This document shows positions 22,031 to 46,617 of a stretch of 64,000 nt of DNA, one piece after another. A program made the position numbers and the translations under genes. Each line of letters opens with the position of its first letter. Position 1 is the first letter of the stretch. The stretch comes from an uncultured Rhodobiaceae bacterium. GTDB taxonomy: Bacteria > Pseudomonadota > Alphaproteobacteria > Rhizobiales > TMED25. The notes beneath the pieces are model-generated. The model did not search any database. It saw nothing but the letters and a program-made list of their open reading frames with translations, and was not told where the DNA came from. The stretch covers positions 35,225-99,224 of the forward strand of contig CAJWEW010000001.1 of the NCBI GenBank assembly GCA_913030915.1, read 5' to 3'.

Positions 22031-23224
22031 TTACAGCTCAATATATCCCATCTGGAAGCTATGCATTCTAACTGATTTATCTTTTTGTATATGAACTAAT
22101 TCACCAGTCTGAATACCAGCCTTATGGTCATTTGTTATGACATTAGGCTGAATAACAACCGTCATATTTTCCTTAAATGTAAACCCCTCATAGCTACTAG
22201 CTGGCCGGCTTTTTGTCCCGAGTACTGGGTCTAAATAGCCACCTCCATAACCATGAATTAAGTCATCCCAAATTGAAAAGCTGCCATCCTCAATCTTAGA
22301 TGAGACTGCATTGATTTCTTCAATCGTAGTCCCATCTTTTAGAATTGAAAAAATACTGCTGAAGACCTCATCACCTACAGCGTGCAACTCATTATATAGT
22401 GGAGTCATTTTTTTAAAGCCAATAGTCCTTAATACCTGACCCGGATAATTCCAAAAGTGCGAGCTTATCTCGGTTGTAATTATATCATTTTGTGTAATAT
22501 TTTTATTTGATGTATACTGATACGGAACACAATTTTCTGGATTATCCATATCGGTGATTCCAAAGAAATTGATTATTTTGTGACCTCCATGCTTTAAATA
22601 ACCGCACTGCGTTATCTGAGACATCTCGTGTTCATTGAGCCCTGGCTCTAGGTTTGAGACAATATTATTTATACCCTCGTCTGTGAGTGCAGAAGCAATT
22701 TTCATCCACGATATTTCCTCATTACTTTTTATTGATCTCATCAAGTTATAGTCTTTGGAGATATCAATGATTTTTATATTTTTTTGCTGAAGCTGGGTTA
22801 CATAGCTGTATGGCAATCTCCCAATTATTCCTATGGTATTATTTTGACCGAGGTCATCTATCATTTCAGGTAATATTTTATTTGCGAGTTGTCTTTGCCC
22901 CCAAAATAGTTTTGTTCTATCATTGATAAGCTTCTCAGCCATTGGGAGGTGATTGTAATGTTCTACATACAAATTTAAATTTTCATTTTCTCTAATCTCA
23001 ACAAGAGCTTCTTGTGTTGTATGCCATCCAGTAAAGTATTGGACAGCATTACCTGAGCCAAGTGCTTCATATATGATAACTTTATCTAATTTTTTTTGGT
23101 TGATGACAGTCTCAATAAGGGAAAATCTTCTTTGATATTCTGCCTCACTAAAAAGAGGGTATTTCTCTTTTAAAATTGCTTTACATGTATCATCAAGATC
23201 ATTAATGAATTGAGCATTATTCAT
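22031..23224 (-). CDS. M24-fold (creatinase/prolidase-like) hydrolase, substrate unknown
   Basis: 397 aa. Creatinase-N-like N-terminus plus a pita-bread C-terminus ('YPGQVLRT', 'IHGYGGG', 'MTVVIQPNV', 'GIQTGELVHI'). Several canonical metal carboxylates appear to be replaced (see finding). Confidence 0.65.
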   Translation of the reverse strand: MNNAQFINDLDDTCKAILKEKYPLFSEAEYQRRFSLIETVINQKKLDKVIIYEALGSGNAVQYFTGWHTTQEALVEIRENENLNLYVEHYNHLPMAEKLINDRTKLFWGQRQLANKILPEMIDDLGQNNTIGIIGRLPYSYVTQLQQKNIKIIDISKDYNLMRSIKSNEEISWMKIASALTDEGINNIVSNLEPGLNEHEMSQITQCGYLKHGGHKIINFFGITDMDNPENCVPYQYTSNKNITQNDIITTEISSHFWNYPGQVLRTIGFKKMTPLYNELHAVGDEVFSSIFSILKDGTTIEEINAVSSKIEDGSFSIWDDLIHGYGGGYLDPVLGTKSRPASSYEGFTFKENMTVVIQPNVITNDHKAGIQTGELVHIQKDKSVRMHSFQMGYIEL

Positions 23225-23265: not shown

Positions 23266-24186
23266 CTAGGACAATCCATATAAAAGTTTGCCCGCAACCG
23301 GTAATGAAGCCCTCATTATCCGTCCATTCATTGAGTCAGTTATATAGAGCGTTTTTCTATCTGGACCACCAAATGCCGTATTTGTCATCAAACTATGATT
23401 ATCCGTATAAATCAGATGTGTTGGCAGACAATTACTATCAAATCTCCAAACACCAACCCCTAAGTGATTCACAATCATTCCATCTTCGGAGTCCATTTCA
23501 AGTCCATCTGGTCCAGCATGGCCCCCAGATAACTGTATTGCAACACCGCTTTTGCTCACACTGTTATCTGCCATTAGAGGCAGTCGCCATATTTGTTGAG
23601 ACCTTGTTATAGCTACATATACTTGATTTTCGGAATTATTCACCGTTATACCATTTGGGCTCGGTGCGTTTGTCACAAGTTTATGTAATTCACCACTGGC
23701 CGTTAACCTAAATACCCTCCCAGTTGGATCTATGATTCCCGTCTGACCTTGGTCAGTAAAATATAGATCCCCGTTTGATGTAAAGTGAAGATCATTTAGG
23801 CCTTTGAATCCCTCGGAATACATAGTCTCTATAATTGGCTCAATCGAACCTGAGCTTACGTCTAATTTCATTAAACCTTGTTTATAGCAGGCAATATAAG
23901 CGGAGCCGTCTTTGTGGAATTTTAATCCGTTTGGCCAACCATCGTATTCGCAAACAATATCCCATTCACCGTCTGGAGTTATTTTAAAAATTCTGCCGAA
24001 AGGAATATCTGTTACATATAGATTACCCTTTCTGTCAAAAGAGGGGCCTTCAAGAAATTGATTTACTTTTGCGCCTTGTCTATTCGGGTTTGACCATGCT
24101 GTTTGTTTTGTATCCCTGTATTTCTCTGGCAGCTCTGTGAATACTTCAGCTTTTATAAGCTCTGGTTGATTAAACGGATTTAACAT
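23266..24186 (-). CDS. SMP-30/gluconolactonase/LRE-family beta-propeller hydrolase
   Basis: 306 aa. Repeated propeller-blade motifs ('EGPSFDRKGNLYVTD', 'NGLKFHKDG', 'NDLHFTSNGDLYFTD', 'PNGITV', 'PDGLEMDSEDG'). Confidence 0.7.
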   Translation of the reverse strand: MLNPFNQPELIKAEVFTELPEKYRDTKQTAWSNPNRQGAKVNQFLEGPSFDRKGNLYVTDIPFGRIFKITPDGEWDIVCEYDGWPNGLKFHKDGSAYIACYKQGLMKLDVSSGSIEPIIETMYSEGFKGLNDLHFTSNGDLYFTDQGQTGIIDPTGRVFRLTASGELHKLVTNAPSPNGITVNNSENQVYVAITRSQQIWRLPLMADNSVSKSGVAIQLSGGHAGPDGLEMDSEDGMIVNHLGVGVWRFDSNCLPTHLIYTDNHSLMTNTAFGGPDRKTLYITDSMNGRIMRASLPVAGKLLYGLS

Positions 24187-24311
24187 TGAATTTCCTCACG
24201 GTAAATTTTAATTGGTTGAACATGTAAAGTAACATATAAAATATTTTTTATTATACATAGATTTTTTTTTATACATATATAAAATAATACAGATAATTAT
24301 TTTTATTTTTT

Positions 24312-24761
24312 ATGGATAAAATTATGAATAATAATGAGAACGAATTGAGTCATTCTAATTTTAGTGTAGACCATATTGCGCATGCAGTTCCAGATATTGA
24401 AGAGGCGATAAACCAATATAAAAGAGTTTTCGGCGCTAGAGTATCGGATATCAAAACAATAGAAAAGCAAGACATAAAGATTGCGATTGTATCTTTTGCA
24501 AATTTAAATATTGAGCTTATGGAACCCTTGAGTGATAAATCACCTATCGCTAATTATTTGCAAAAAAATCCAAAAGGTGGATTGCACCATTACTGTCTTT
24601 CTGTTGGGGATCTCAAGCAGGCGTATGGAGACCAAAAAGAAAAGAAAATAAATATCTTATCAGAGCCAACAGCAGGCTATCATGGAAGAAATTTATATTT
24701 TATTCACCCAAGTGAGGTTTGTGGTGCACTGATAGAGGTTGAAGAGCATGAAAAAGAATGA
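24312..24761 (+). CDS. Methylmalonyl-CoA epimerase-like VOC-family protein
   Basis: 149 aa. 'VDHIAHAVPDIEEA', 'IELMEPLSDKSPIANYLQKNPKGGLHHYCLSV' and 'YFIHPSEVCGALIEVEE' match the MCE subfamily pattern. Confidence 0.75.
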   Translation: MDKIMNNNENELSHSNFSVDHIAHAVPDIEEAINQYKRVFGARVSDIKTIEKQDIKIAIVSFANLNIELMEPLSDKSPIANYLQKNPKGGLHHYCLSVGDLKQAYGDQKEKKINILSEPTAGYHGRNLYFIHPSEVCGALIEVEEHEKE

Positions 24762-24806
24762 TAATTTTCATTTGTCAAAAATTTAATAAAATTAACAGAG
24801 GTAAAA

Positions 24807-25673
24807 ATGTCAAAAGCTGGTGGTGAATACAAAGAAGTATTATTTGAAATTAGAAATAAGGTCGCATGGATTTCAATAAATAGACCTGAAGTAAGAAATG
24901 CATTCCGTGAGCAGACTCTGGATGAGTTAACTGACGCTGTACTATCTACGCGTAACGATCCATCAATCGTGTGCGTTGTTATTAATGGGGTCGGTGATAA
25001 GGCTTTCTCTGCGGGGGGTGATTTTCACGCAATGATGAGGTTAGATTGGATTAACGCGGCGCACTGGAATGATCGCATGTTAGCGTTAGCAATGGCGATT
25101 AGAGGCTTACCAATACCAGTAGTTGCATCTGTTCATGGCTACTGTATGGGTGGTGGTCACGAGCTTGCACTTTGGTGTGATTTGGTTATTGCTGCGGATG
25201 ACGCAATATTTGGGCAAAGCGGTGCAGTAGTCGGGGCCTGTCCTACTGTTGGGGCAACTCAATATCTTCCGCAACTAATTGGGTCAAGGTTAGCAAAGGA
25301 AATGATTTTTATGGCGAGAAGATTCACTGCAGAAGAAGCTGTAAGCATCGGATTAATCAACAAAGTGGTTCCAAAAGATAAATTAGACGAAGAAACCCAG
25401 AAGTGGTGCGAGGGGCTTATCGAAAGAAGTGGTCAGACTATAAGACAGACAAAGAAATCACTCAATCATGACTCCGACACACTATATGCAAGTTGGCAGC
25501 ATGGTATGGAACTTCTTGCTCATGTATGGGGTTCTGAAGAGTCTCTTGAAGGCATGAATGCATTTCTTGAAAAAAGAAAGCCTGACTTTCAGCAGTTCCG
25601 TGAAAGAAGAAAAGAAAATGTTGAGGCATATCTTGACGGGCTTGATAATGATGAGAATGAAAGACCTAATTAG
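24807..25673 (+). CDS. Crotonase-superfamily enzyme of the MenB/BadI subfamily (function unknown)
   Basis: 288 aa. 'ISINRPEVRNAFRE', 'GVGDKAFSAGGD', 'GYCMGGGHELALWCDLVIAADDAIFGQSG' and C-terminal 'EGMNAFLEKRKPDFQQF' parallel E. coli MenB blocks as I recall them. Confidence 0.8.
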   Translation: MSKAGGEYKEVLFEIRNKVAWISINRPEVRNAFREQTLDELTDAVLSTRNDPSIVCVVINGVGDKAFSAGGDFHAMMRLDWINAAHWNDRMLALAMAIRGLPIPVVASVHGYCMGGGHELALWCDLVIAADDAIFGQSGAVVGACPTVGATQYLPQLIGSRLAKEMIFMARRFTAEEAVSIGLINKVVPKDKLDEETQKWCEGLIERSGQTIRQTKKSLNHDSDTLYASWQHGMELLAHVWGSEESLEGMNAFLEKRKPDFQQFRERRKENVEAYLDGLDNDENERPN

Positions 25674-25690
25674 CACAAAAAGGACAATTT

Positions 25691-26890
25691 ATGGCTAAAA
25701 AAGAAAAAGGCCCTCTAACTGGCATTAAGGTGCTAGACTTAAGCAGAATATTGGCGGGTCCATTTTGCACTATGAACCTTGGGGATATGGGCGCAGAAAT
25801 CATCAAGATAGAGCAACCTGGAAAAGGTGATGATACAAGAGCATGGGGCCCTCCATTCGCAGGAAGTGAAGCTGCATATTTCCTCGGTATTAATCGAAAT
25901 AAAAAAAGTGTGACATTAAACTTAAAATCTGAGGAAGGCATAACTATCCTAAAGCAACTTCTTAAGGATGCTGACGTGCTGATAGAAAATTTTAAGTATG
26001 GCACAATGGATAGTTATGGAATCAGTGACGAATGGAGAGAGAAAGAAGCACCTCAACTTATACATTGTCAGATTACCGGATATGGCGGAAGAGGTCCAAG
26101 AGGTAAAAGACCGGGGTATGACTTTCTACTACAAGCTGAAAGTGGGCTAATGAGTATCACAGGGGAAGAAAATGGGGAACCCATGAAAGTTGGTGTTGCA
26201 TTAGTCGATATATGCACAGGGATGAATGCAACAATATCTATTTTAGGAGCATTAAATTCCAGATACAATACTGGTAAAGGGCAAAAAGTAGAGACCAGCC
26301 TGTATGCAACCAGCATTTCAATGTTAGTTAATGTTGCGGCAAATCACCTAGTTAGCGGTAAGCCCGCCAGAAGATTTGGCAACGGGCATCCAAATATTGT
26401 ACCCTACAGGACATTTGAGGCGAAAGATGGCAGTATTGCTATTGCTGTTGGAAACGACACTCAATTTGCAAAATTTGCCACATGTTTGAACAAAGAAGAG
26501 TGGGCAACAGATACAAGGTTCACTAAAAATGCTGATAGAGTAATAAATAGACAATTAATCGATCAGGAAATACAGAATGTCATTGCTGGCAAAACAGTTA
26601 CAGAATGGCTAGAGAAATTGTTAAGTTCAGATATTCCTGCAAGCGCTGTGAATTCTGTTGAAAGCGCATTAGCAGATGAACAGACTATAGCTAATGACAT
26701 GGTCGTAAATATAGAGCATTCAGAAGCTGGAACACTCAAGATGTTAGGTGTTCCATATAGATTTTCTGATACACCAGCTCAGATAGATAAAGCACCACCA
26801 CTTCTAGGAGAAGATAATAATGACGTCTTATCCTCTCTTGGATACGAGGAAGATTATATAAAAGAACTTCGTTCAAAAAACGTTATTTAA
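25691..26890 (+). CDS. Class III (CaiB/BaiF family) CoA-transferase
   Basis: 399 aa. 'GPLTGIKVLDLSRILAGPFCTMNLGDMGAEIIKIE' and 'GYDFLLQAESGLMSITG' (catalytic Asp region). Confidence 0.85.
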   Translation: MAKKEKGPLTGIKVLDLSRILAGPFCTMNLGDMGAEIIKIEQPGKGDDTRAWGPPFAGSEAAYFLGINRNKKSVTLNLKSEEGITILKQLLKDADVLIENFKYGTMDSYGISDEWREKEAPQLIHCQITGYGGRGPRGKRPGYDFLLQAESGLMSITGEENGEPMKVGVALVDICTGMNATISILGALNSRYNTGKGQKVETSLYATSISMLVNVAANHLVSGKPARRFGNGHPNIVPYRTFEAKDGSIAIAVGNDTQFAKFATCLNKEEWATDTRFTKNADRVINRQLIDQEIQNVIAGKTVTEWLEKLLSSDIPASAVNSVESALADEQTIANDMVVNIEHSEAGTLKMLGVPYRFSDTPAQIDKAPPLLGEDNNDVLSSLGYEEDYIKELRSKNVI

Positions 26891-26903
26891 AAATCAAATT
26901 TTT

Positions 26904-27797
26904 ATGATTGATAAAACTTCAACATCACAAGACGCAATAAGGAATAATGTGAATGCCGGAGATACTATATTTATTGGTGGTTTTGGTCACTTAATACCAT
27001 TTCATCTCTCGCATGAGCTAATTCGCCAAAAAATATTAGATTTAACCATTTGCCGATCGGGGGCAGATATACTATTCGATCAATTAATTGCATCTGAAAT
27101 TGTTAAAAAAGTTATTTTTGGTTATGTTGGAAATCCGACGGTTGGTCTGTCCCACTCATTCAGCAGAGCATACAAAAAAAAATCAGTAGAAATTGAAGAG
27201 TGGACAAACCAGTCGATCATAATGAGATTACATGCGGCAAGGATGGGTGTGAGTTTTATTCCATCGAAGATTCTTCAGATTGGAGATAAGCCAAGTAATA
27301 TTGATTATCTAAAACAAATTAAATGTCCATACACAGATCAAAAATTTTCAGCGATTCCATCGCTAAAGCCTGATATTGCAATAATACACGCGCAATTAGC
27401 TGATAAGTATGGAAATATTCAAATGTGGGGTATTGATGGTGACACTATCGAAGGGGCGCTGGCATCAGATAAGATTATTGTCAGTGTAGAAAAAATTATT
27501 AGTAATTCAAAAATAAAAGAGTCACCAGAAAAAACAGTTATACCATCACACAGAGTTTCTAATATCATTGAACTTCCATGGGGTGCATACCCGTCATATG
27601 TTTCAGGTCATTATTCACGGGATGATAATCATTATATAGAATATGATACAATATCACGGGATGAGGATAAGCTATCTAGCTACCTTAAAAATTGGGTTCA
27701 TGATGCTAGAAATATCGAAGCATATAAAAAGTTAATTGGAAATACAAAAATCAAAGAGCTTGAACAGGGGCTTTGTGGAGTAAAAAATGAAAATTGA
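26904..27797 (+). CDS. Class I CoA-transferase, subunit A (glutaconate-CoA-transferase-like)
   Basis: 297 aa. 'AGDTIFIGGFG' N-terminus and 'ELPWGAYPSYVSGHYSRD', typical of GctA-like alpha subunits. Overlaps the B subunit by 11 bp. Confidence 0.75.
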   Translation: MIDKTSTSQDAIRNNVNAGDTIFIGGFGHLIPFHLSHELIRQKILDLTICRSGADILFDQLIASEIVKKVIFGYVGNPTVGLSHSFSRAYKKKSVEIEEWTNQSIIMRLHAARMGVSFIPSKILQIGDKPSNIDYLKQIKCPYTDQKFSAIPSLKPDIAIIHAQLADKYGNIQMWGIDGDTIEGALASDKIIVSVEKIISNSKIKESPEKTVIPSHRVSNIIELPWGAYPSYVSGHYSRDDNHYIEYDTISRDEDKLSSYLKNWVHDARNIEAYKKLIGNTKIKELEQGLCGVKNEN

Positions 27798-28527
27798 TTT
27801 CAGAGAATATAGCCCAAATCAGCGGATCGCAATAATTGCAGCATCCGAACTTGTGGGATATAAGTCCTGTTTTGTTGGAATTGGTATTCCGTCCGACGCA
27901 GCATGCCTGGCAAAACTTAGTGTTGAGCCTGAACTCAACCTTATTTATGAGTCTGGGGCAATTGGTGCTCTACCACTTTCTAAATCTTATTCGACTGGTA
28001 GCCCATCAATCGCACATGGTGCGGATATGATAACAGATAGCCTCTCTGTGTTTTCAGACTTGCAGGCTGGACGAATAGACGTTGGTTTACTATCTGCAGC
28101 CCAAATTGATATATTTGGAAATTTAAATTCAACCGTTATTGGAGACTATGACGATCCAAAGATAAGGATGGTTGGGTCGGGTGGGGCGCATGATATTGCA
28201 TGTTTAATACCAAATCTAATCATTCTGATGCCTCATGATCCGAGGCGGTTTGTTGATAGTGTCGATTTTGCAACTAGCCCGGGTTCTGGAAGAGATATTA
28301 AGAAAATTAGAGACCAATTAAATCTGGCAGAAGGTCCCTCTATTCTTATTACCGATAAAGCAAAATTTATAATGTCGGATGAAGGTTGGTTGCTACATAG
28401 TATACTTGATAATTTTACTTTTGCAGAGGCAACTGAAGGACTGCCATGGTCATTAAAACCTCCTATTACCGGTCCAATTGAGACAGATCCAGCCATAATT
28501 TCTGCATTGGAACAAATTAATTATTAA
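27787..28527 (+). CDS. Class I CoA-transferase, subunit B (GctB-like)
   Basis: 246 aa. 'NLIYESGAIG' places a Glu at residue 55, where GctB carries the catalytic glutamate; also 'GSGGAHD'. Confidence 0.75.
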   Translation: MKIDFREYSPNQRIAIIAASELVGYKSCFVGIGIPSDAACLAKLSVEPELNLIYESGAIGALPLSKSYSTGSPSIAHGADMITDSLSVFSDLQAGRIDVGLLSAAQIDIFGNLNSTVIGDYDDPKIRMVGSGGAHDIACLIPNLIILMPHDPRRFVDSVDFATSPGSGRDIKKIRDQLNLAEGPSILITDKAKFIMSDEGWLLHSILDNFTFAEATEGLPWSLKPPITGPIETDPAIISALEQINY

Positions 28528-29887
28528 TTATTTCATCTATACTTTGAAGGGTTACATCAAGTATAGTATCAATTTCATCATTATTAATACAAAAAGCAGG
28601 TGCGAAACCAATTGTATCACCTGCTGGCATTGCTCGAGCTAAAACGCCATTTTTTGCCATCCTCATAACTATCTCTTGGGATAACTGCCCCTTTTTTTCA
28701 AAAAATTTCCTATTTTTCTTATCTTTAACAAGCTCTATAGCAGATAGCAATCCAATGCCCCTAACATCACCTATTTGAGGGTGATCTTGAAATTTCTCCT
28801 TTAGTTTGAAATTAAAGTATTTGGATATATCCTTACCTTTTTTGATAAGTTGATGATTATCTATATGATTTAAATTCGCGACTCCAGCTGCACAAGATAT
28901 TGGGTGGGCAGAATAGGTTGAACCATGTGTCCACACACCGTATTTATCTGTTGCATCTCTTATTACATTCGATATTTTTTCTGATAATATTGATCCTGAT
29001 AGAGGAGAGTATGCTGAGGTGATGCCCTTGGCGACAGTGATCATATCAGCTTCAATCCCAAAATAATCAACACCAAACATTTTTCCGAGTCTGCCGAAGC
29101 CTGTCACAACCTCATCTGATATTAGTGCAATATTGTATTTCTCCAACACATTTTTAATTCTAGGCCAGTAATTATGCGGCGGAGGTACCAGTCCACCATT
29201 TCCTATAACAGGCTCAGCAATAAACCCAGCTATAGTGTCTGGATTTTCTTTTAAAATAAGCTCTTCAAGCTGATCCGCACAAAATTGGGAATATTCATCT
29301 TCTGTTTGATCAAGATCAGCTCTGTGGAAATAAAATGCATCCTCCGTATGAAGTATCCCCTCGATAGGTAAATCATAATTAAAATGATATGTTTCTATTC
29401 CTGTGAGGCTACCCGTAAAAATACTCGCTCCGTGGTACCCACCCCTCCTTGATATTATTTTCTTTTTCTTCGTATGACCGATAAGATTGTTGTAGTACCA
29501 TAATAATTTAATATTGGTATCATTAGCGTCAGAGCCAGATAAACCAAAATATATTTTTTTCATATTATTTGGTGACCTTTCAATTACCATGTCAGATAAT
29601 TTGATTGAAGCCTCCGTGGCATTTCCATAATAACAATGGTAATATGCAAGCTCTTCAGCTTGTTTTTTTATCGCGTCAATAATATCTGTGCAACCATAAC
29701 CAACATTAACACAATACAGACCAGAAAAAGCGTCTATAAATGAGTTACCTTGGGCATCTATTATCTCTACACCCCTTGCAGTTTTCATAATTCTATTATC
29801 GATTTCACCGCGTTCAAACTTTGCAAGGTGAGTCATAGGGTGAATAAGATATTCTCTATCTATTTTTTCGTATTCGTTTAAATTCAT
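28517..29887 (-). CDS. Class III (omega-) aminotransferase, PLP-dependent
   Basis: 456 aa. 'SGLYCVNVGYG', 'LISDEVVTGFGRLG' and 'TVAKGITSAY' (PLP lysine). Confidence 0.85.
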   Translation of the reverse strand: MNLNEYEKIDREYLIHPMTHLAKFERGEIDNRIMKTARGVEIIDAQGNSFIDAFSGLYCVNVGYGCTDIIDAIKKQAEELAYYHCYYGNATEASIKLSDMVIERSPNNMKKIYFGLSGSDANDTNIKLLWYYNNLIGHTKKKKIISRRGGYHGASIFTGSLTGIETYHFNYDLPIEGILHTEDAFYFHRADLDQTEDEYSQFCADQLEELILKENPDTIAGFIAEPVIGNGGLVPPPHNYWPRIKNVLEKYNIALISDEVVTGFGRLGKMFGVDYFGIEADMITVAKGITSAYSPLSGSILSEKISNVIRDATDKYGVWTHGSTYSAHPISCAAGVANLNHIDNHQLIKKGKDISKYFNFKLKEKFQDHPQIGDVRGIGLLSAIELVKDKKNRKFFEKKGQLSQEIVMRMAKNGVLARAMPAGDTIGFAPAFCINNDEIDTILDVTLQSIDEIINN

Positions 29888-33874: not shown

Positions 33875-34561
33875 ATGAGTAAAAGTTTATTCGAAAGGAT
33901 AAAGAATAATCGATTTTTCCAAGCTTTTGTTATTATTGCAATTATATTATCAGCCTTCCTGGTTGGTGTTTCAACATATAATATACCTGCACCAACAGTT
34001 GCATTTATTTACTTTTTAGACACTCTAATTACAATTTTCTTTGTTATCGAAATTTGTATAAGATTCTTTGCAGAGGATAAAAAATTATATTTTTTTAAAA
34101 ATGGCTGGAATGTTTTTGATACTTTAATTGTGATAATTTCGATCATTCCAATTGGCCCAAACTCATCAATACTGGTGCTAAGATTATTGAGAATATTCAG
34201 AGTTTTGAGATTAATATCTGCCATACCTGAGCTTAAAGAACTGATAGAGGCACTATTAAAATCAATCAAAAGAGTATTTTATGTATCCTTGCTCCTATTC
34301 ATAATAATTTATGTTTATGCTTCATTTGGAAGCATTTTGTTCGGACAATCAGATCCTCAGAGATGGGGAGATCTTGGAATATCGATGATTACCCTTGTTC
34401 AAGTTCTCACACTATCAAGTTGGGAAAATGTAATGTTACCTATGCAGGAGATATTTTGGTGGGCATGGGTATACTTCTTTAGTTTTGTCGCAATAGGATC
34501 AATAACAATCCTAAATTTGATTATTGCAGTTTTAGTTGACGTAATAACAAAGCAAAAATAG
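33875..34561 (+). CDS. Voltage-gated cation channel, BacNaV (NaChBac/NavRh) family
   Basis: 228 aa with six TM segments. S4 'LVLRLLRIFRVLRLISAIPELK' has four Arg at every third position; pore 'LVQVLTLSSWENVM'; S6 ends at 'LVDVITKQK', so there is no C-terminal coiled coil. Confidence 0.9.
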   Translation: MSKSLFERIKNNRFFQAFVIIAIILSAFLVGVSTYNIPAPTVAFIYFLDTLITIFFVIEICIRFFAEDKKLYFFKNGWNVFDTLIVIISIIPIGPNSSILVLRLLRIFRVLRLISAIPELKELIEALLKSIKRVFYVSLLLFIIIYVYASFGSILFGQSDPQRWGDLGISMITLVQVLTLSSWENVMLPMQEIFWWAWVYFFSFVAIGSITILNLIIAVLVDVITKQK

Positions 34562-34678: not shown

Positions 34679-35368
34679 ATGACAACAGGACAACTCAATC
34701 CAGCTGATTACGTCGGCGTAAGTTTCTGGATTATATCTGCAGCTATGGTTGCAGCAACATTCTTTTTCTGGGTAGAAAGAGATCGCGCAGTTGGTAAATG
34801 GAAAACATCTCTAACTGTAGCCGCAATGGTTACAGGTATTGCTGCCATCCACTATTTCTACATGCGTGATGTTTGGGTTAGCACAGGCGAGTCCCCAATC
34901 GTATTCCGATATGTAGACTGGCTTTTAACCGTACCACTTCAAATTGTTGAATTCTACTTAATACTGGCAGCTATTGCTGTGGTTGCAGCGTCGCTATTCT
35001 GGCGCCTGCTGATCGCATCAATTGTAATGCTAGTTGCCGGTTATCTCGGTGAAGTTGGTGCAATGAATGTCTGGCTTGCGTTCATTATCGGAATGGCAGG
35101 TTGGATCTACATCATTTACGAAATATTTGCTGGTGAAGCAAGTAAAATTAGTGCAAGTGATGGTACTCCAGCATCTCAACGAGCATTTAATGCTTTGAGA
35201 ATCATTGTAACAGTCGGTTGGGCAATTTACCCACTCGGCTATGTACTTGGTTATGCTGGTGCCGGAAGTGCAGATGCGCTTAACATCATATACAACCTTG
35301 CTGATTTTGTTAACAAAATCGCATTTGGTGTTGTTATATGGGTTGCTGCTACATCTGACGCAAAATAA
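34679..35368 (+). CDS. Proteorhodopsin (light-driven proton pump), blue-tuned Gln105 type
   Basis: 229 aa with 7 TM helices. It aligns by eye along its whole length to green PR. 'FRYVDWLLTVPLQIVEFYLIL' gives Arg94, Asp97, Thr101, Gln105 and Glu108; 'IHYFYM' gives His75; 'YNLADFVNKIAFG' gives Asp227 and the Schiff-base Lys231. Confidence 0.95.
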   Translation: MTTGQLNPADYVGVSFWIISAAMVAATFFFWVERDRAVGKWKTSLTVAAMVTGIAAIHYFYMRDVWVSTGESPIVFRYVDWLLTVPLQIVEFYLILAAIAVVAASLFWRLLIASIVMLVAGYLGEVGAMNVWLAFIIGMAGWIYIIYEIFAGEASKISASDGTPASQRAFNALRIIVTVGWAIYPLGYVLGYAGAGSADALNIIYNLADFVNKIAFGVVIWVAATSDAK

Positions 35369-45138: not shown

Positions 45139-46617
45139 TTAGATTTCTTTTGACGGTGTAGTTAGGTTTATGCTTATATTTTTTCTTTGAGTGAAGCTAT
45201 CAAGCATCCCTTCAAGTGAAAATTCACGACCAATACCTGATTGCTTAAATCCACCATACGAATGTCCAGGGGCCTGTGCTAGACCTTGATTAACCTGTAC
45301 CCATCCAGACTCAATTGCATGAGCTGCATTTATGCCTCTTGTTATGTCTCTTGTCCAAACGTATGCGGCTAAACCATAGTGACTTTGATTTGCCATTTTT
45401 ATGACTTCCTCCTCGTCATCCCACGGAATTGCAACAAGTACGGGACCAAAAATTTCTTCCTTTGCAAGACGCCATTCATTTGATTTATTTCTGAAGATAG
45501 TTGGTATTGTGAAATACCCTTCACTAAGTGGTCCATCTTCCGGGGGCATGCCTCCACAAATAACCTCAGTGTTTTTATTATCTAAACCGTCTGAAATGTA
45601 GTCACAAACTTTTGTAAATTGTTTTTTATTTATGATAGTTCCTATATCAGTATCTTCATCGAGTGGATTACCGATGATTAGTTTATCAAGTTTCTCCGAC
45701 AATTTACCAATAAAACTATCAAATATTTTTTTGTGTAGGAATAATCTTGAACCTGCTGTACAAGATTGGCTTTGCCTTGTAAATCTCATGGCGCCAATAA
45801 TCCCATCAACTGTCCAATCTTCATTTACATCAGGATAAACAACCGAAGGACTTTTTCCTCCTAGCTCAAGAGATACAGGTAAAATTCGCTCCGCAGCTGC
45901 CCTCATGACAAGTTTTCCAACTTCCGTTGATCCCGTGAAGGATAACTTGTTTATTTCAGGGTGATATGCAAGCGGCTCACCACATTCAGGACCAGTTCCC
46001 GTTAAAAGGTTTAGAACGCCAGGTGGTATGAATTTTTGACAAATTTCAGCTATTTTTAGAATTGCCAACGGGGCGTCTTCAGCAGCCTTCATTACAAGTG
46101 TATTTCCAGCGCATAATGCGGGTGCAATTTTGCAGGCACCAAGCATAACAGGGGCATTCCATGGAATTATTGCACCAACTACACCTAAGGGTTCACGCCT
46201 TGTATAACTTAATACATGTTCTCCAAGTGGGATAGTCTCACCCTTCAATTCTGAGGATAATCCACCAAAATATCTGAATATATCAACTACAAGATTAATT
46301 TCCGGTCTTGCTTGGGTTTTTATTGCATTTCCGGTTTCAGTTGCAATAATTTTTGCAATATCTTCTTTTTCAATTTCTATGGCATCCGCTATCTTGAGAA
46401 GTATTCTGCCTCTCTCTTTAGGCATTACTTTTGACCAAGATCCGAATGCTTTCAGAGACGATTTTACAGCTATATCAACGTCAGACTCATTACCCCGCGG
46501 AACACTGGCAAATATCCTCTTATTTGCAGGGCACTCAATTCCAATCGTCTTTTCTGTTGCGCCATTTGTAAACTTACCATCTATGATCATTTGGTGATTT
46601 TTTATTTTCTGACTCAT
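45139..46617 (-). CDS. NAD(P)+-dependent aldehyde dehydrogenase
   Basis: 492 aa. 'LELGGKSP', 'RFTRQSQSCTAGSRLF' (catalytic Cys region) and 'EEIFGPV'. Separated from the GST gene by a 2-bp gap. Confidence 0.9.
   Translation of the reverse strand: MSQKIKNHQMIIDGKFTNGATEKTIGIECPANKRIFASVPRGNESDVDIAVKSSLKAFGSWSKVMPKERGRILLKIADAIEIEKEDIAKIIATETGNAIKTQARPEINLVVDIFRYFGGLSSELKGETIPLGEHVLSYTRREPLGVVGAIIPWNAPVMLGACKIAPALCAGNTLVMKAAEDAPLAILKIAEICQKFIPPGVLNLLTGTGPECGEPLAYHPEINKLSFTGSTEVGKLVMRAAAERILPVSLELGGKSPSVVYPDVNEDWTVDGIIGAMRFTRQSQSCTAGSRLFLHKKIFDSFIGKLSEKLDKLIIGNPLDEDTDIGTIINKKQFTKVCDYISDGLDNKNTEVICGGMPPEDGPLSEGYFTIPTIFRNKSNEWRLAKEEIFGPVLVAIPWDDEEEVIKMANQSHYGLAAYVWTRDITRGINAAHAIESGWVQVNQGLAQAPGHSYGGFKQSGIGREFSLEGMLDSFTQRKNISINLTTPSKEI

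Follow-up and report, generated by a model that had tools for sequence, protein, structure and literature searches.

A mobile crotonase and CoA-transferase module of uncharacterised function shared by streamlined marine Alphaproteobacteria and by bacteria of soil and freshwater

A 64-kb stretch of DNA from an uncultured Rhodobiaceae bacterium (contig CAJWEW010000001.1; the whole stretch is hereafter called the window) carries a real, conserved, mobile and uncharacterised catabolic module, in which a crotonase (ECH) stands beside a class III (CaiB/BaiF-family) CoA-transferase, together with a methylmalonyl-CoA epimerase-type protein (MCE) of the VOC family and a two-subunit class I CoA-transferase resembling GctAB. 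The module represents acid catabolism by CoA-transferase and crotonase, built from familiar families, and is not a new category of metabolism. No description of this gene combination was found in the literature, among the curated NCBIfam equivalogs or in the PDB, in line with an initial annotation of the same DNA that could match the set to no known pathway. With moderate confidence, we interpret the module as a self-contained CoA shuttle for a short (~C5-C6) di- or tricarboxylic acid, probably lactone-derived, unsaturated or branched; any single named substrate (e.g. itaconate, mesaconate, hydroxymethylsuccinate or a muconolactone-type acid) is quite unlikely in itself. Gene families were assigned with Pfam and NCBIfam profiles and with PDB sequence matches, which bear out the families read earlier from the sequence, namely VOC/MCE, crotonase, class III transferase, GctA- and GctB-like subunits, and the Aminotran_3 protein of a convergent gene.

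Many independent genomes show this arrangement, which is therefore not a chance juxtaposition; the earlier description of a co-oriented, conserved, CoA-dependent cluster holds. We compared two sets of loci, individual members of which carry L numbers. The first was anchored on GctA, with one genome per GTDB species and the window proteins mapped onto 70 loci, and is biased towards GctAB. Here, the full five-gene set was present in the loci of 24 GTDB species, spanning several clades of OCS116 (an abundant group of marine Hyphomicrobiales/Rhodobiaceae), other Hyphomicrobiales, Rhodospirillaceae and the cultured Ancylobacter sp. Lp-2 (L041) and A. sonchi VKM B-3145 (L046). A Bauldia metagenome-assembled genome (MAG) holds the five genes in two divergent units, and the order ECH-GctA-GctB-CaiB occurs in Acidobacteriota ('Marinacidobacterales'), an actinomycete MAG and two unclassified MAGs. 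Furthermore, transposase genes flank the module in a Hyphomicrobiales MAG (L008/L024), where the window's other neighbours are all missing. Transposase fragments (DDE_Tnp_1, DDE_Tnp_1_4) lie upstream of the five genes (L008 2764-5107, = L024) and split caspase-like (Peptidase_C14) open reading frames (ORFs) downstream, bordering features that suggest a recent horizontal insertion.

The second set was anchored on the crotonase in metagenome contigs from soil, lakes and the sea, which gave more than 600 crotonase pattern matches; among those listed, 65 loci were left once OCS116-like loci had been excluded. In 39 of the 44 assessable loci listed, from soil, freshwater and marine samples alike, the gene right after the crotonase is that of the class III transferase. 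MCE lies within 2 kb of the crotonase in 11 of the 31 loci listed, and in nearly all marine loci. A 59-locus ORF family that emerged from clustering of this set is the antisense shadow ORF of the crotonase, not MCE. Fifteen of the loci listed extend at least 5 kb on either side of the crotonase; GctA was found in none of them, nor was the M24 hydrolase encoded near the window's cluster, and an aminotransferase gene was found in one (L132). Outside this subset GctAB accompanies the crotonase in a few loci (L139, L163, L165), of which L165 and L139 are without CaiB. The leanest contexts are MFS-ECH-CaiB (L164) and MFS-ECH-MFS-CoA_trans A/B (L165). The crotonase and a CoA-transferase thus form the invariant minimal, mobile unit, which MCE often joins as a third member (nearly always in marine lineages); GctAB is either an add-on (in marine Alphaproteobacteria) or an alternative transferase replacing CaiB. 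The initial annotation had therefore recognised a real cluster and drawn its boundaries wrongly: the core is the crotonase with the class III transferase, GctAB is accessory, and a lactonase-like gene outside the proposed span probably belongs. The marine osmolyte that it suggested is unlikely to describe the substrate in general, since metagenomes from soil and freshwater contain the core pair just as commonly.

As the signature enzyme of the module, the crotonase ranks with the best-conserved proteins of the locus, at 60-77 % identity across phyla from Alphaproteobacteria to Acidobacteriota and the actinomycete MAG. Its ECH_1 match is full-length, and the oxyanion-hole glycines G71 and G116 are invariant together with G139. 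The closest PDB match is MenB (2iex, 7e-64), and the protein remains under every NCBIfam cutoff, scoring 236.6 bits against MenB NF005637 (cutoff 380), 221.1 against TIGR01929 (cutoff 342.7) and 218.5 against BadI TIGR03210 (cutoff 467.6). It had been annotated as a C-C-bond-type crotonase of the MenB/BadI kind; the scaffold is indeed MenB-like, but the active site differs. In MenB, Asp-163 is catalytically essential and Ser-161, Tyr-97 and Tyr-258 lie in the active site (Sun et al. 2013, PMC3637252). Alignment with E. coli MenB (4els) places A144 at S161, P146 at D163, I82 at Y97 and W241 at Y258, so that all four residues are replaced, and further pairs A69 with S84, E119 with V136, G139 with G156 and K256 with K273. 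Among 106 subfamily sequences (60-100 % identity) position 82 is variable, whereas E119, W87-N-D-R90, W123, G139, A144-C-P-T147, Q152-Y153, Y227, W230-Q231 and W241 are invariant; A144 and P146, two of the replacements, fall in the A144-C-P-T147 motif. The protein also has a conserved C-terminal extension. The motifs FSAGGDF, WNDR, GGGHELALWCD and GACPTVGATQY, in this order, characterise the subfamily.

The gained E119 lies three residues past the second oxyanion glycine, the position of the hydratase Glu144; there is no Glu at +23, and the position of the second hydratase Glu is occupied by Gly. The methylmalonyl-CoA decarboxylase YgfG presumably has the same pattern, with the first Glu and none at +23. 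In type I MenB, bicarbonate occupies the place of the catalytic base of other crotonases (PMC3637252). The residue pattern fits a putative one-base enolate enzyme, i.e. a hydratase or eliminase, an isomerase or a decarboxylase, possibly with help from a bound anion or from a carboxylate of the substrate itself. Dieckmann or retro-Dieckmann chemistry, including ring cleavage of the BadI type, is not supported, because the MenB catalytic residues are absent and an invariant Glu stands at the place of the hydratase Glu144. An analogy with the menaquinone enzymes MenC-MenE-MenB, built on MLE, transferase and crotonase, was likewise ruled out by the missing MenB catalytic residues.

The subfamily stands as an isolated island in a library clustered at 50 % identity, where its nearest real neighbours are at most 44 % identical; two seeming intermediates (P0241 and P0253) are frameshifted or chimeric subfamily members that inflate the apparent divergence. 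Two kinds can be told apart among these neighbours, one of MenB/BadI type (GGGHV, GSVD, FYG) and one that bears the Glu and is uncharacterised (GGG[HN]E, GSxP). The window crotonase resembles the latter, and the MenB/BadI-type outgroup P0260 keeps GSVD, which is missing from the subfamily. A search of a plasmid collection returned only matches of 44-45 % identity (Rhodococcus jostii RHA1, Paraburkholderia) and no annotated close relative.

The class III transferase matches PF02515 over its full length (435.9 bits, profile positions 1-366 of 366). Its nearest structure is human SUGCT (9br6, 1.6e-103), and its closest family, short of equivalog level, is the succinate-glutarate CoA-transferase NF052585 (371.6 bits, cutoff 750); the L-carnitine CoA-transferase CaiB model NF002914 fails (153.1 bits, cutoff 413). 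D173, which from its position is presumably the catalytic Asp, is invariant in 86 homologues. The class I enzyme comprises separate A and B subunits of PF01144 that are closest to GctA and GctB: the alpha subunit matches 1poi_A (6e-36) well ahead of IpdA (4.5e-18), of 5mzw, a 'glutaconate CoA-transferase family' entry that is presumably AibA/AibAB, and of SCOT, and the beta subunit matches 1poi_B well ahead of SCOT/AtoDA-type enzymes. E55 of the beta subunit aligns with the ESG motif of GctB, and E55-S-G is invariant in 49 homologues, which argues that the pair is a true transferase. IpdAB, in contrast, is said to be a hydrolase without the catalytic Glu of the beta subunit, as Crowe et al. 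reportedly found in 2018; the kept Glu, the weaker match to IpdA and a context free of steroid genes all set the window pair apart from it. No hgd or gcd genes of glutamate fermentation were found near the cluster. A different and likewise uncharacterised CoA system was seen at L009 8001-12955 (= L057), where a GctAB-like pair adjoins a 795-aa protein of two class III CoA-transferase domains (DddD-like architecture), with a cyclase-family protein, an alpha/beta hydrolase and an ABC transporter.

The VOC protein scores above the cutoff of the MCE equivalog TIGR03081 (126.6 bits vs 114.95) and matches human MCEE (3rmu, 6e-30). H21, E68, H92 and H93 are invariant in 46 homologues and E142 is conserved wherever aligned; by comparison with MCE structures, these His and Glu residues are presumably the metal-binding and acid-base residues. 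The protein is accordingly annotated here as a predicted MCE-type epimerase. With their catalytic residues intact, the transferases and the epimerase look catalytically competent.

The gene that we add to the system encodes a beta-propeller protein of the SMP-30/gluconolactonase/LRE family (SGL) and is divergent from the operon. Its PF08450 score is 124.4 bits (gathering score 26.3), its nearest structures are the lactonases Drp35, gluconolactonase and 7ris (~1e-19), and no signal peptide was found in the protein. OCS116 clades, L077/L163, L047 and, from freshwater, L118/L131/L132 all have SGL next to the crotonase operon and in divergent orientation, and its percentage identity follows that of the crotonase or is higher. 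For instance, L022/L023 are 93-94 % identical to the window in SGL and 88 % in ECH, as compared with 75-76 % in CaiB, 66-67 % in GctA and 52-53 % in M24; the freshwater loci retain 66-68 % in SGL, 67-68 % in ECH and 50-51 % in CaiB; and between OCS116 clades SGL is 93-99 % identical, above almost every neighbour. SGL thus varies together with the crotonase in four lineages or more and probably belongs to the system.

Other lineages surround the core with different accessory genes, whose common threads are carboxylate uptake, families that form or open lactones, and follow-up steps resembling beta-oxidation. A TctC/Bug binding protein is encoded in 31 of the 82 clustered ECH-anchored loci listed, and a full TctCBA system stands beside the trio of MCE, crotonase and class III transferase in L080/L082. 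An enolase of the MLE subgroup, closest to muconate cycloisomerase (PDB 7e-41; TIGR02534 166 bits), directly follows CaiB in 18 loci listed. Amidohydro_2 proteins recur, one type being closest to 4-sulfomuconolactone hydrolase (228 bits vs cutoff 500), as do Gfo/Idh/MocA dehydrogenases and short-chain dehydrogenases (SDRs) near the core pair, and sequence inspection assigned dienelactone-hydrolase-like and carboxymuconolactone-decarboxylase-like genes there. In the freshwater loci L118 (4787-5707) and L132 (8026-8952) a gene of the 3-hydroxyacyl-CoA dehydrogenase family (3HCDH) lies directly upstream of ECH, in the slot held by MCE in marine loci; its best NCBIfam match is the FHMPC dehydrogenase of the pyridoxine pathway (192 bits vs cutoff 500), followed by 3-hydroxyacyl-CoA dehydrogenases. 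In L081 a thiolase and a CoA_trans pair, a paralogue (34-37 % identical) and not an orthologue of the window GctAB, stand beside the trio.

A separate link to Liu/MCC-type catabolism was considered and rejected: a few soil loci have an acyl-CoA dehydrogenase and a carboxyltransferase in the vicinity of the trio, yet a two-component system intervenes and the matches are below equivalog cutoffs. SAR116-type loci (L064, L066, L067, L076, also L105 and L113) hold MCE-ECH-CaiB-MLE and GctAB inside a far larger island with a thiamine diphosphate enzyme, a 393-aa OsmC-like fusion, an FrsA-like hydrolase, two Amidohydro_2 proteins, a putative cyclase, an ILVD/EDD dehydratase, an SDR, an EamA exporter and an ABC transporter.

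The order and conservation of the genes, their families and their intact catalytic residues are shown by the data, and the reactions that follow are inferred. SGL, acting in the cytoplasm, would open or interconvert a lactone to yield the free acid, a role that MLE or Amidohydro_2 proteins may take in other lineages. The SUGCT-like class III transferase, with its catalytic Asp intact, would then move CoA from succinyl-CoA onto one carboxylate. In the crotonase, the oxyanion hole would stabilise the thioester enolate and Glu119 would direct hydration, beta-elimination or isomerisation of the dicarboxylyl-CoA, while the vacant second-base position at G139 (the bicarbonate site of type I MenB) may receive the substrate's own carboxylate; decarboxylation at this step seems less likely. 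MCE could invert an acidic C2, either of a 2-substituted malonyl-type intermediate or of methylmalonyl-CoA derived from a propionyl-CoA end product, and the GctAB-like enzyme would perform a second CoA transfer, from the product to the incoming acid or to acetate, or would activate a second acid.

A dicarboxylate substrate is suggested by the closest characterised relatives of the transferases (SUGCT, the succinate-glutarate and succinyl-CoA:mesaconate transferase models, and GctAB) and by the frequent TctC/Bug neighbours. This part of the earlier proposal is thus plausible. The lactone theme follows from the co-variation of SGL with ECH and from the MLE, Amidohydro_2, dienelactone-hydrolase-like and carboxymuconolactone-decarboxylase-like neighbours, and hints of a hydratase-type reaction come from the invariant Glu119, from the 3HCDH-family gene upstream of ECH and from the thiolase beside the trio. 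Several points weigh against this CoA-shuttle interpretation. The accessory genes differ widely between lineages and none of them reaches a curated equivalog cutoff, so that the lactone argument is one of family-level similarity. The lyase, thiolase, dehydrogenase and transporter that would complete a pathway were not found in the OCS116 cluster or the scanned window. Furthermore, MCE is absent from about two thirds of the ECH-anchored loci listed and is left unexplained if the scheme is a simple hydratase one, the single Glu of the crotonase would suit a decarboxylase or an isomerase just as well, and an AlphaFold model of the crotonase, built on a 10-sequence alignment, had a pLDDT of 66, too poor for comparison of fold or pocket.

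The alternative that best explains MCE is a decarboxylation cycle, in which the class III transferase would load a 2-substituted malonate (methyl-, ethyl- or carboxyalkyl-) with CoA, MCE would convert the 'wrong' C2 epimer, the crotonase would decarboxylate the ester to an acyl-CoA, as the decarboxylases YgfG of E. coli and ECHDC1 of mammals do, and GctAB would recycle the CoA. The epimerase is genuine by score and by its invariant residues, its chemistry needs a doubly activated C2-H as found in a malonyl-type thioester, and tricarboxylate-type TctCBA transporters are frequent neighbours. In addition, the crotonase presumably shares its Glu pattern with YgfG, and G139 is kept at the bicarbonate site of type I MenB, next to C-alpha, where it could hold an alpha-carboxylate (PMC3637252). 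We nevertheless regard this cycle as unlikely, given that the methylmalonyl-CoA decarboxylase (MMCD) structure 1ef8 is a much weaker match to the crotonase (3.5e-30) than MenB is, that MCE is so often missing, and that the lactonase, MLE, dehydrogenase and 3-hydroxyacyl-CoA-dehydrogenase-type neighbours are left unexplained. Nor do we know of an abundant natural substituted malonate that fits the spread over soil, freshwater and sea. More improbable still is the model of the initial annotation, in which a hydrolase of the BadI/EchA20 type would open a cyclic or linear beta-ketoacyl-CoA by retro-Dieckmann or retro-Claisen cleavage, with the epimerase racemising C-alpha and the transferases activating the beta-keto acid and handling the dicarboxylate product. 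MenB and BadI are the closest scaffolds, class I transferases typically act on 3-oxoacids, a thiolase and CoA_trans pair occurs at L081, and the steroid pathway pairs the MenB-like EchA20 with the GctAB-like IpdAB (PMC5380842). Against these stand the loss of all four MenB residues throughout the subfamily, its grouping with GGG[HN]E sequences and not with the outgroup of true MenB/BadI type that keeps GSVD and GGGHV, a BadI score less than half the equivalog cutoff, the kept Glu of the GctB-like subunit, hence unlike IpdAB, and surroundings without bad/ali or steroid genes. Moreover, the C-alpha of a beta-ketoacyl-CoA racemises spontaneously, which makes an epimerase needless.

An amino acid or osmolyte pathway, in which the convergent omega-transaminase, with or without the M24 hydrolase, would feed an amino-substituted substrate to the CoA enzymes, is very improbable. 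The transaminase gene does overlap the last operon gene by 11 bp, M24 is adjacent in two lineages, RidA-like and aminotransferase genes lie near the trio in some lineages, and a class III aminotransferase gene directly follows CaiB in L132. However, the latter enzyme is only 30 % identical to that of the window, M24 is missing from the long ECH-anchored loci, and the transporters nearby are of carboxylate types (TctC, MFS). The window-type transaminase follows the module, along with SnoaL-like and cupin genes, only within the synteny of the OCS116 lineage, and is absent beside it in L008/L024, Rhodospirillaceae, Ancylobacter, L163 and the metagenome loci. It is thus probably a neighbour and not the cluster member it had been taken for. 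Finally, unrelated neighbours or housekeeping enzymes, such as a general MCE, might have been packed together by chance, as tight packing is normal in a streamlined genome and the surrounding genes are housekeeping ones; the recurrence of the gene set in unrelated contexts, orders and phyla, once flanked by transposases, largely refutes this explanation and leaves it hardly credible.

Among characterised systems, catabolism of branched C5-dicarboxylates comes closest to our CoA-shuttle interpretation in substrate class. Bacterial clusters of this kind (Ict-Ich-Ccl, Mcd, MmgE) encode a class III transferase together with a hydratase (PMC12290011), and one also carries PA0880, a small VOC-family protein that proved to be a lactonase (PMC9875883). 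In mammals, SUGCT turns itaconate into itaconyl-CoA, and the crotonase AUH has been linked to itaconate conversion (PMC9153040; bioRxiv 10.1101/2025.09.29.679238). Both routes, the mammalian one with SUGCT, AUH and CLYBL, use a succinyl-CoA-dependent class III transferase followed by a hydratase; as in the window module, a VOC-fold protein and lactone-handling accessories occur, SUGCT is the closest solved homologue of the window transferase and AUH is itself a crotonase. In contrast to Ict-Ich-Ccl, the window hydratase candidate belongs to a different family, no citramalyl-CoA lyase, Mcd or MmgE is present in cluster or window, the VOC protein is of MCE type (149 aa) and not of the 127-aa PA0880 type, and GctAB is without counterpart. 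CaiB/CaiD of carnitine metabolism likewise set a class III CoA-transferase beside a crotonase and transform an acid as its CoA ester with CoA recycled, and AcuN/AcuK of acrylate metabolism form a CoA-transferase and crotonase pair of the same logic, which the invariant ECH-CaiB pair and the leanest loci of transporter, ECH and transferase follow as well. Both differ from the window module, whose crotonase belongs to another subfamily on a MenB-like scaffold, whose class III transferase falls far below the carnitine model's cutoff, whose transporter and transferase homologies point to dicarboxylates and not to betaines or acrylate, and whose MCE and second, class I transferase they lack.

The remaining comparisons each concern one part of the module. 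GctAB of Acidaminococcus fermentans is also a two-subunit class I transferase and the best PDB match, with the ESG Glu of the beta subunit conserved; the similarity is modest, however, the window is without hgd/gcd, and its host is an aerobic photoheterotroph. MenB (DHNA-CoA synthase) and BadI (2-ketocyclohexanecarboxyl-CoA hydrolase) share with the window crotonase the oxyanion glycines, the bicarbonate-site Gly and the C-terminal EKRKPDF, but apart from the altered active site and the low scores, no men or bad genes accompany it, nor does the set of CoA ligase, acyl-CoA dehydrogenase, hydratase and dehydrogenase typical of a BadI context. IpdAB and EchA20 of steroid C/D-ring cleavage also place a GctAB-like heterodimer beside a MenB-like crotonase (PMC5380842), whereas in the window pair the beta Glu is invariant, the match to IpdA is weaker than that to GctA, and other genes of the KstR2 regulon are missing. 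The sbm-ygfD-ygfG-ygfH operon of E. coli runs a CoA cycle that involves methylmalonyl-CoA, an enzyme of the crotonase family and a CoA-transferase, and includes no epimerase; the window differs in having no mutase, a weak MMCD match and transferases from other families.

Table 1. Position and best supporting match of the module genes and flanking features in the window.
Feature	Position	Strand	Evidence or remark
Methylmalonyl-CoA epimerase-type VOC protein (MCE)	24312..24761	+	TIGR03081 above cutoff
Crotonase (ECH), signature enzyme of the module	24807..25673	+	ECH_1 3e-70
Class III (CaiB/BaiF-family) CoA-transferase, SUGCT-like	25691..26890	+	CoA_transf_3 2e-130
Class I CoA-transferase alpha subunit, GctA-like	26904..27797	+	CoA_trans 2e-24
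Class I CoA-transferase beta subunit, GctB-like	27787..28527	+	1poi_B 2e-25; start overlaps alpha gene by 11 bp
Class III aminotransferase, convergent neighbour	28517..29887	-	Aminotran_3 2e-78; PRK07482-like, 668 vs cutoff 687
SMP-30/gluconolactonase/LRE-family beta-propeller (SGL), probable lactonase	23266..24186	-	Pfam SGL 7e-36
M24-fold hydrolase, possible accessory (low confidence)	22031..23224	-	Peptidase_M24 4e-17
Conserved intergenic block ATACATAG-T9-ATACATAT..., candidate promoter or operator	24253..24297	+	kept in L007, L015

The ORF table reproduced exactly the coordinates, the gaps between the five plus-strand genes (45, 17, 13 and -11 bp) and the convergent 11-bp overlap at the 3' end of the transaminase gene given by the initial annotation; all genes of the cluster (Table 1) are intact, and gene callers on identical contigs start MCE at the ATG at 24324 (145 aa) and not at 24312 (149 aa). 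No intergenic terminators were found inside the operon in a promoter and terminator scan, and an Rfam scan of 21.0-31.5 kb gave no match. The absence of an acyl-CoA dehydrogenase, thiolase, lyase, transporter or regulator, noted previously for the cluster, extends to the larger scanned ORFs of the window, the remaining scanned genes of which are housekeeping. The window belongs to the marine OCS116 cluster and is AT-rich (GC ~35 %), and its catabolic gene cluster lies between recF-gyrB on one side and a proteorhodopsin region on the other. Loci 91-92 % identical to it are present in single-amplified genomes and MAGs of OCS116, contigs identical to it occur in Tara Oceans assemblies, and the cluster adjoins recF-gyrB in all OCS116 clades sampled. 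Genomes of these relatives are apparently ~1.4 Mb, judged from single MAG contigs of 1.38-1.42 Mb (L017, L021).

Upstream of the operon, the intergenic sequence at ~24253-24286 is kept in L007 and L015, where the MCE protein is only 56-65 % identical. This block is AT-rich with two ATACATA half-sites 19 bp apart, there is no regulator gene nearby, and a promoter-like TATACA-16-GATAAT at 24270-24297 overlaps it, a match that is suggestive only, as the counts of the scan were at or below shuffled expectation; the block at 24253-24297 may be the operon promoter or an operator. The M24 protein, a 38-39 % homologue of which is encoded divergently beside the module in Rhodospirillaceae (L029/L030/L043), has Q and G at the positions of D220 and H284 of Pyrococcus prolidase (1pv9), which we take to be metal ligands. 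It thus appears to be without the prolidase metal ligands and may be a creatinase-like non-metallo hydrolase, possibly an accessory of the module, an assignment of low confidence. An identity as DddP was ruled out, with the metal ligands seemingly not conserved and no NCBIfam match.

Further along the window, the proteorhodopsin gene (34679-35368, +) directly follows a gene for a small voltage-gated-type ion channel (33875-34561), near genes for CutA, a ceramidase-family protein and a DCC1-like thiol-disulfide oxidoreductase, an arrangement kept with small rearrangements in the 72 %-identity relative L007. The only other clearly catabolic-looking spot is an aldehyde dehydrogenase gene (45139-46617, -) adjoining a glutathione S-transferase and a flavin amine-oxidase-like gene; it has no equivalog (best match betaine aldehyde dehydrogenase, 432 bits vs cutoff 669) and is unlinked to the cluster in other genomes.

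More tentatively, and in our view rather doubtfully, the module could be an undescribed central funnel for lactone-forming or branched short dicarboxylates whose crotonase reaction is new to the superfamily, for instance that of a substrate-carboxylate-assisted hydratase-lyase, of a lactone-opening beta-eliminase or of a CoA-ester decarboxylase using the MenB bicarbonate pocket. If true, such a funnel would be in use from soil bacteria to streamlined ocean photoheterotrophs, and identification of its substrate would extend the labile carbon pool of seawater by a new class of compounds. That a catabolic island of five or six genes is kept beside recF-gyrB in all sampled clades, in genomes apparently as small as ~1.4 Mb, implies that the substrate is of importance in surface seawater. 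The crotonase subfamily is broad and highly conserved, yet we found no structure, curated family or literature for it, and cultured hosts of the module exist (Ancylobacter). Knowledge of its reaction would give a proper annotation to thousands of genes at present mislabelled 'dihydroxynaphthoic acid synthetase', establish a new function for the MenB/BadI scaffold and reveal a carbon source common to bacteria of soil, lake and ocean.

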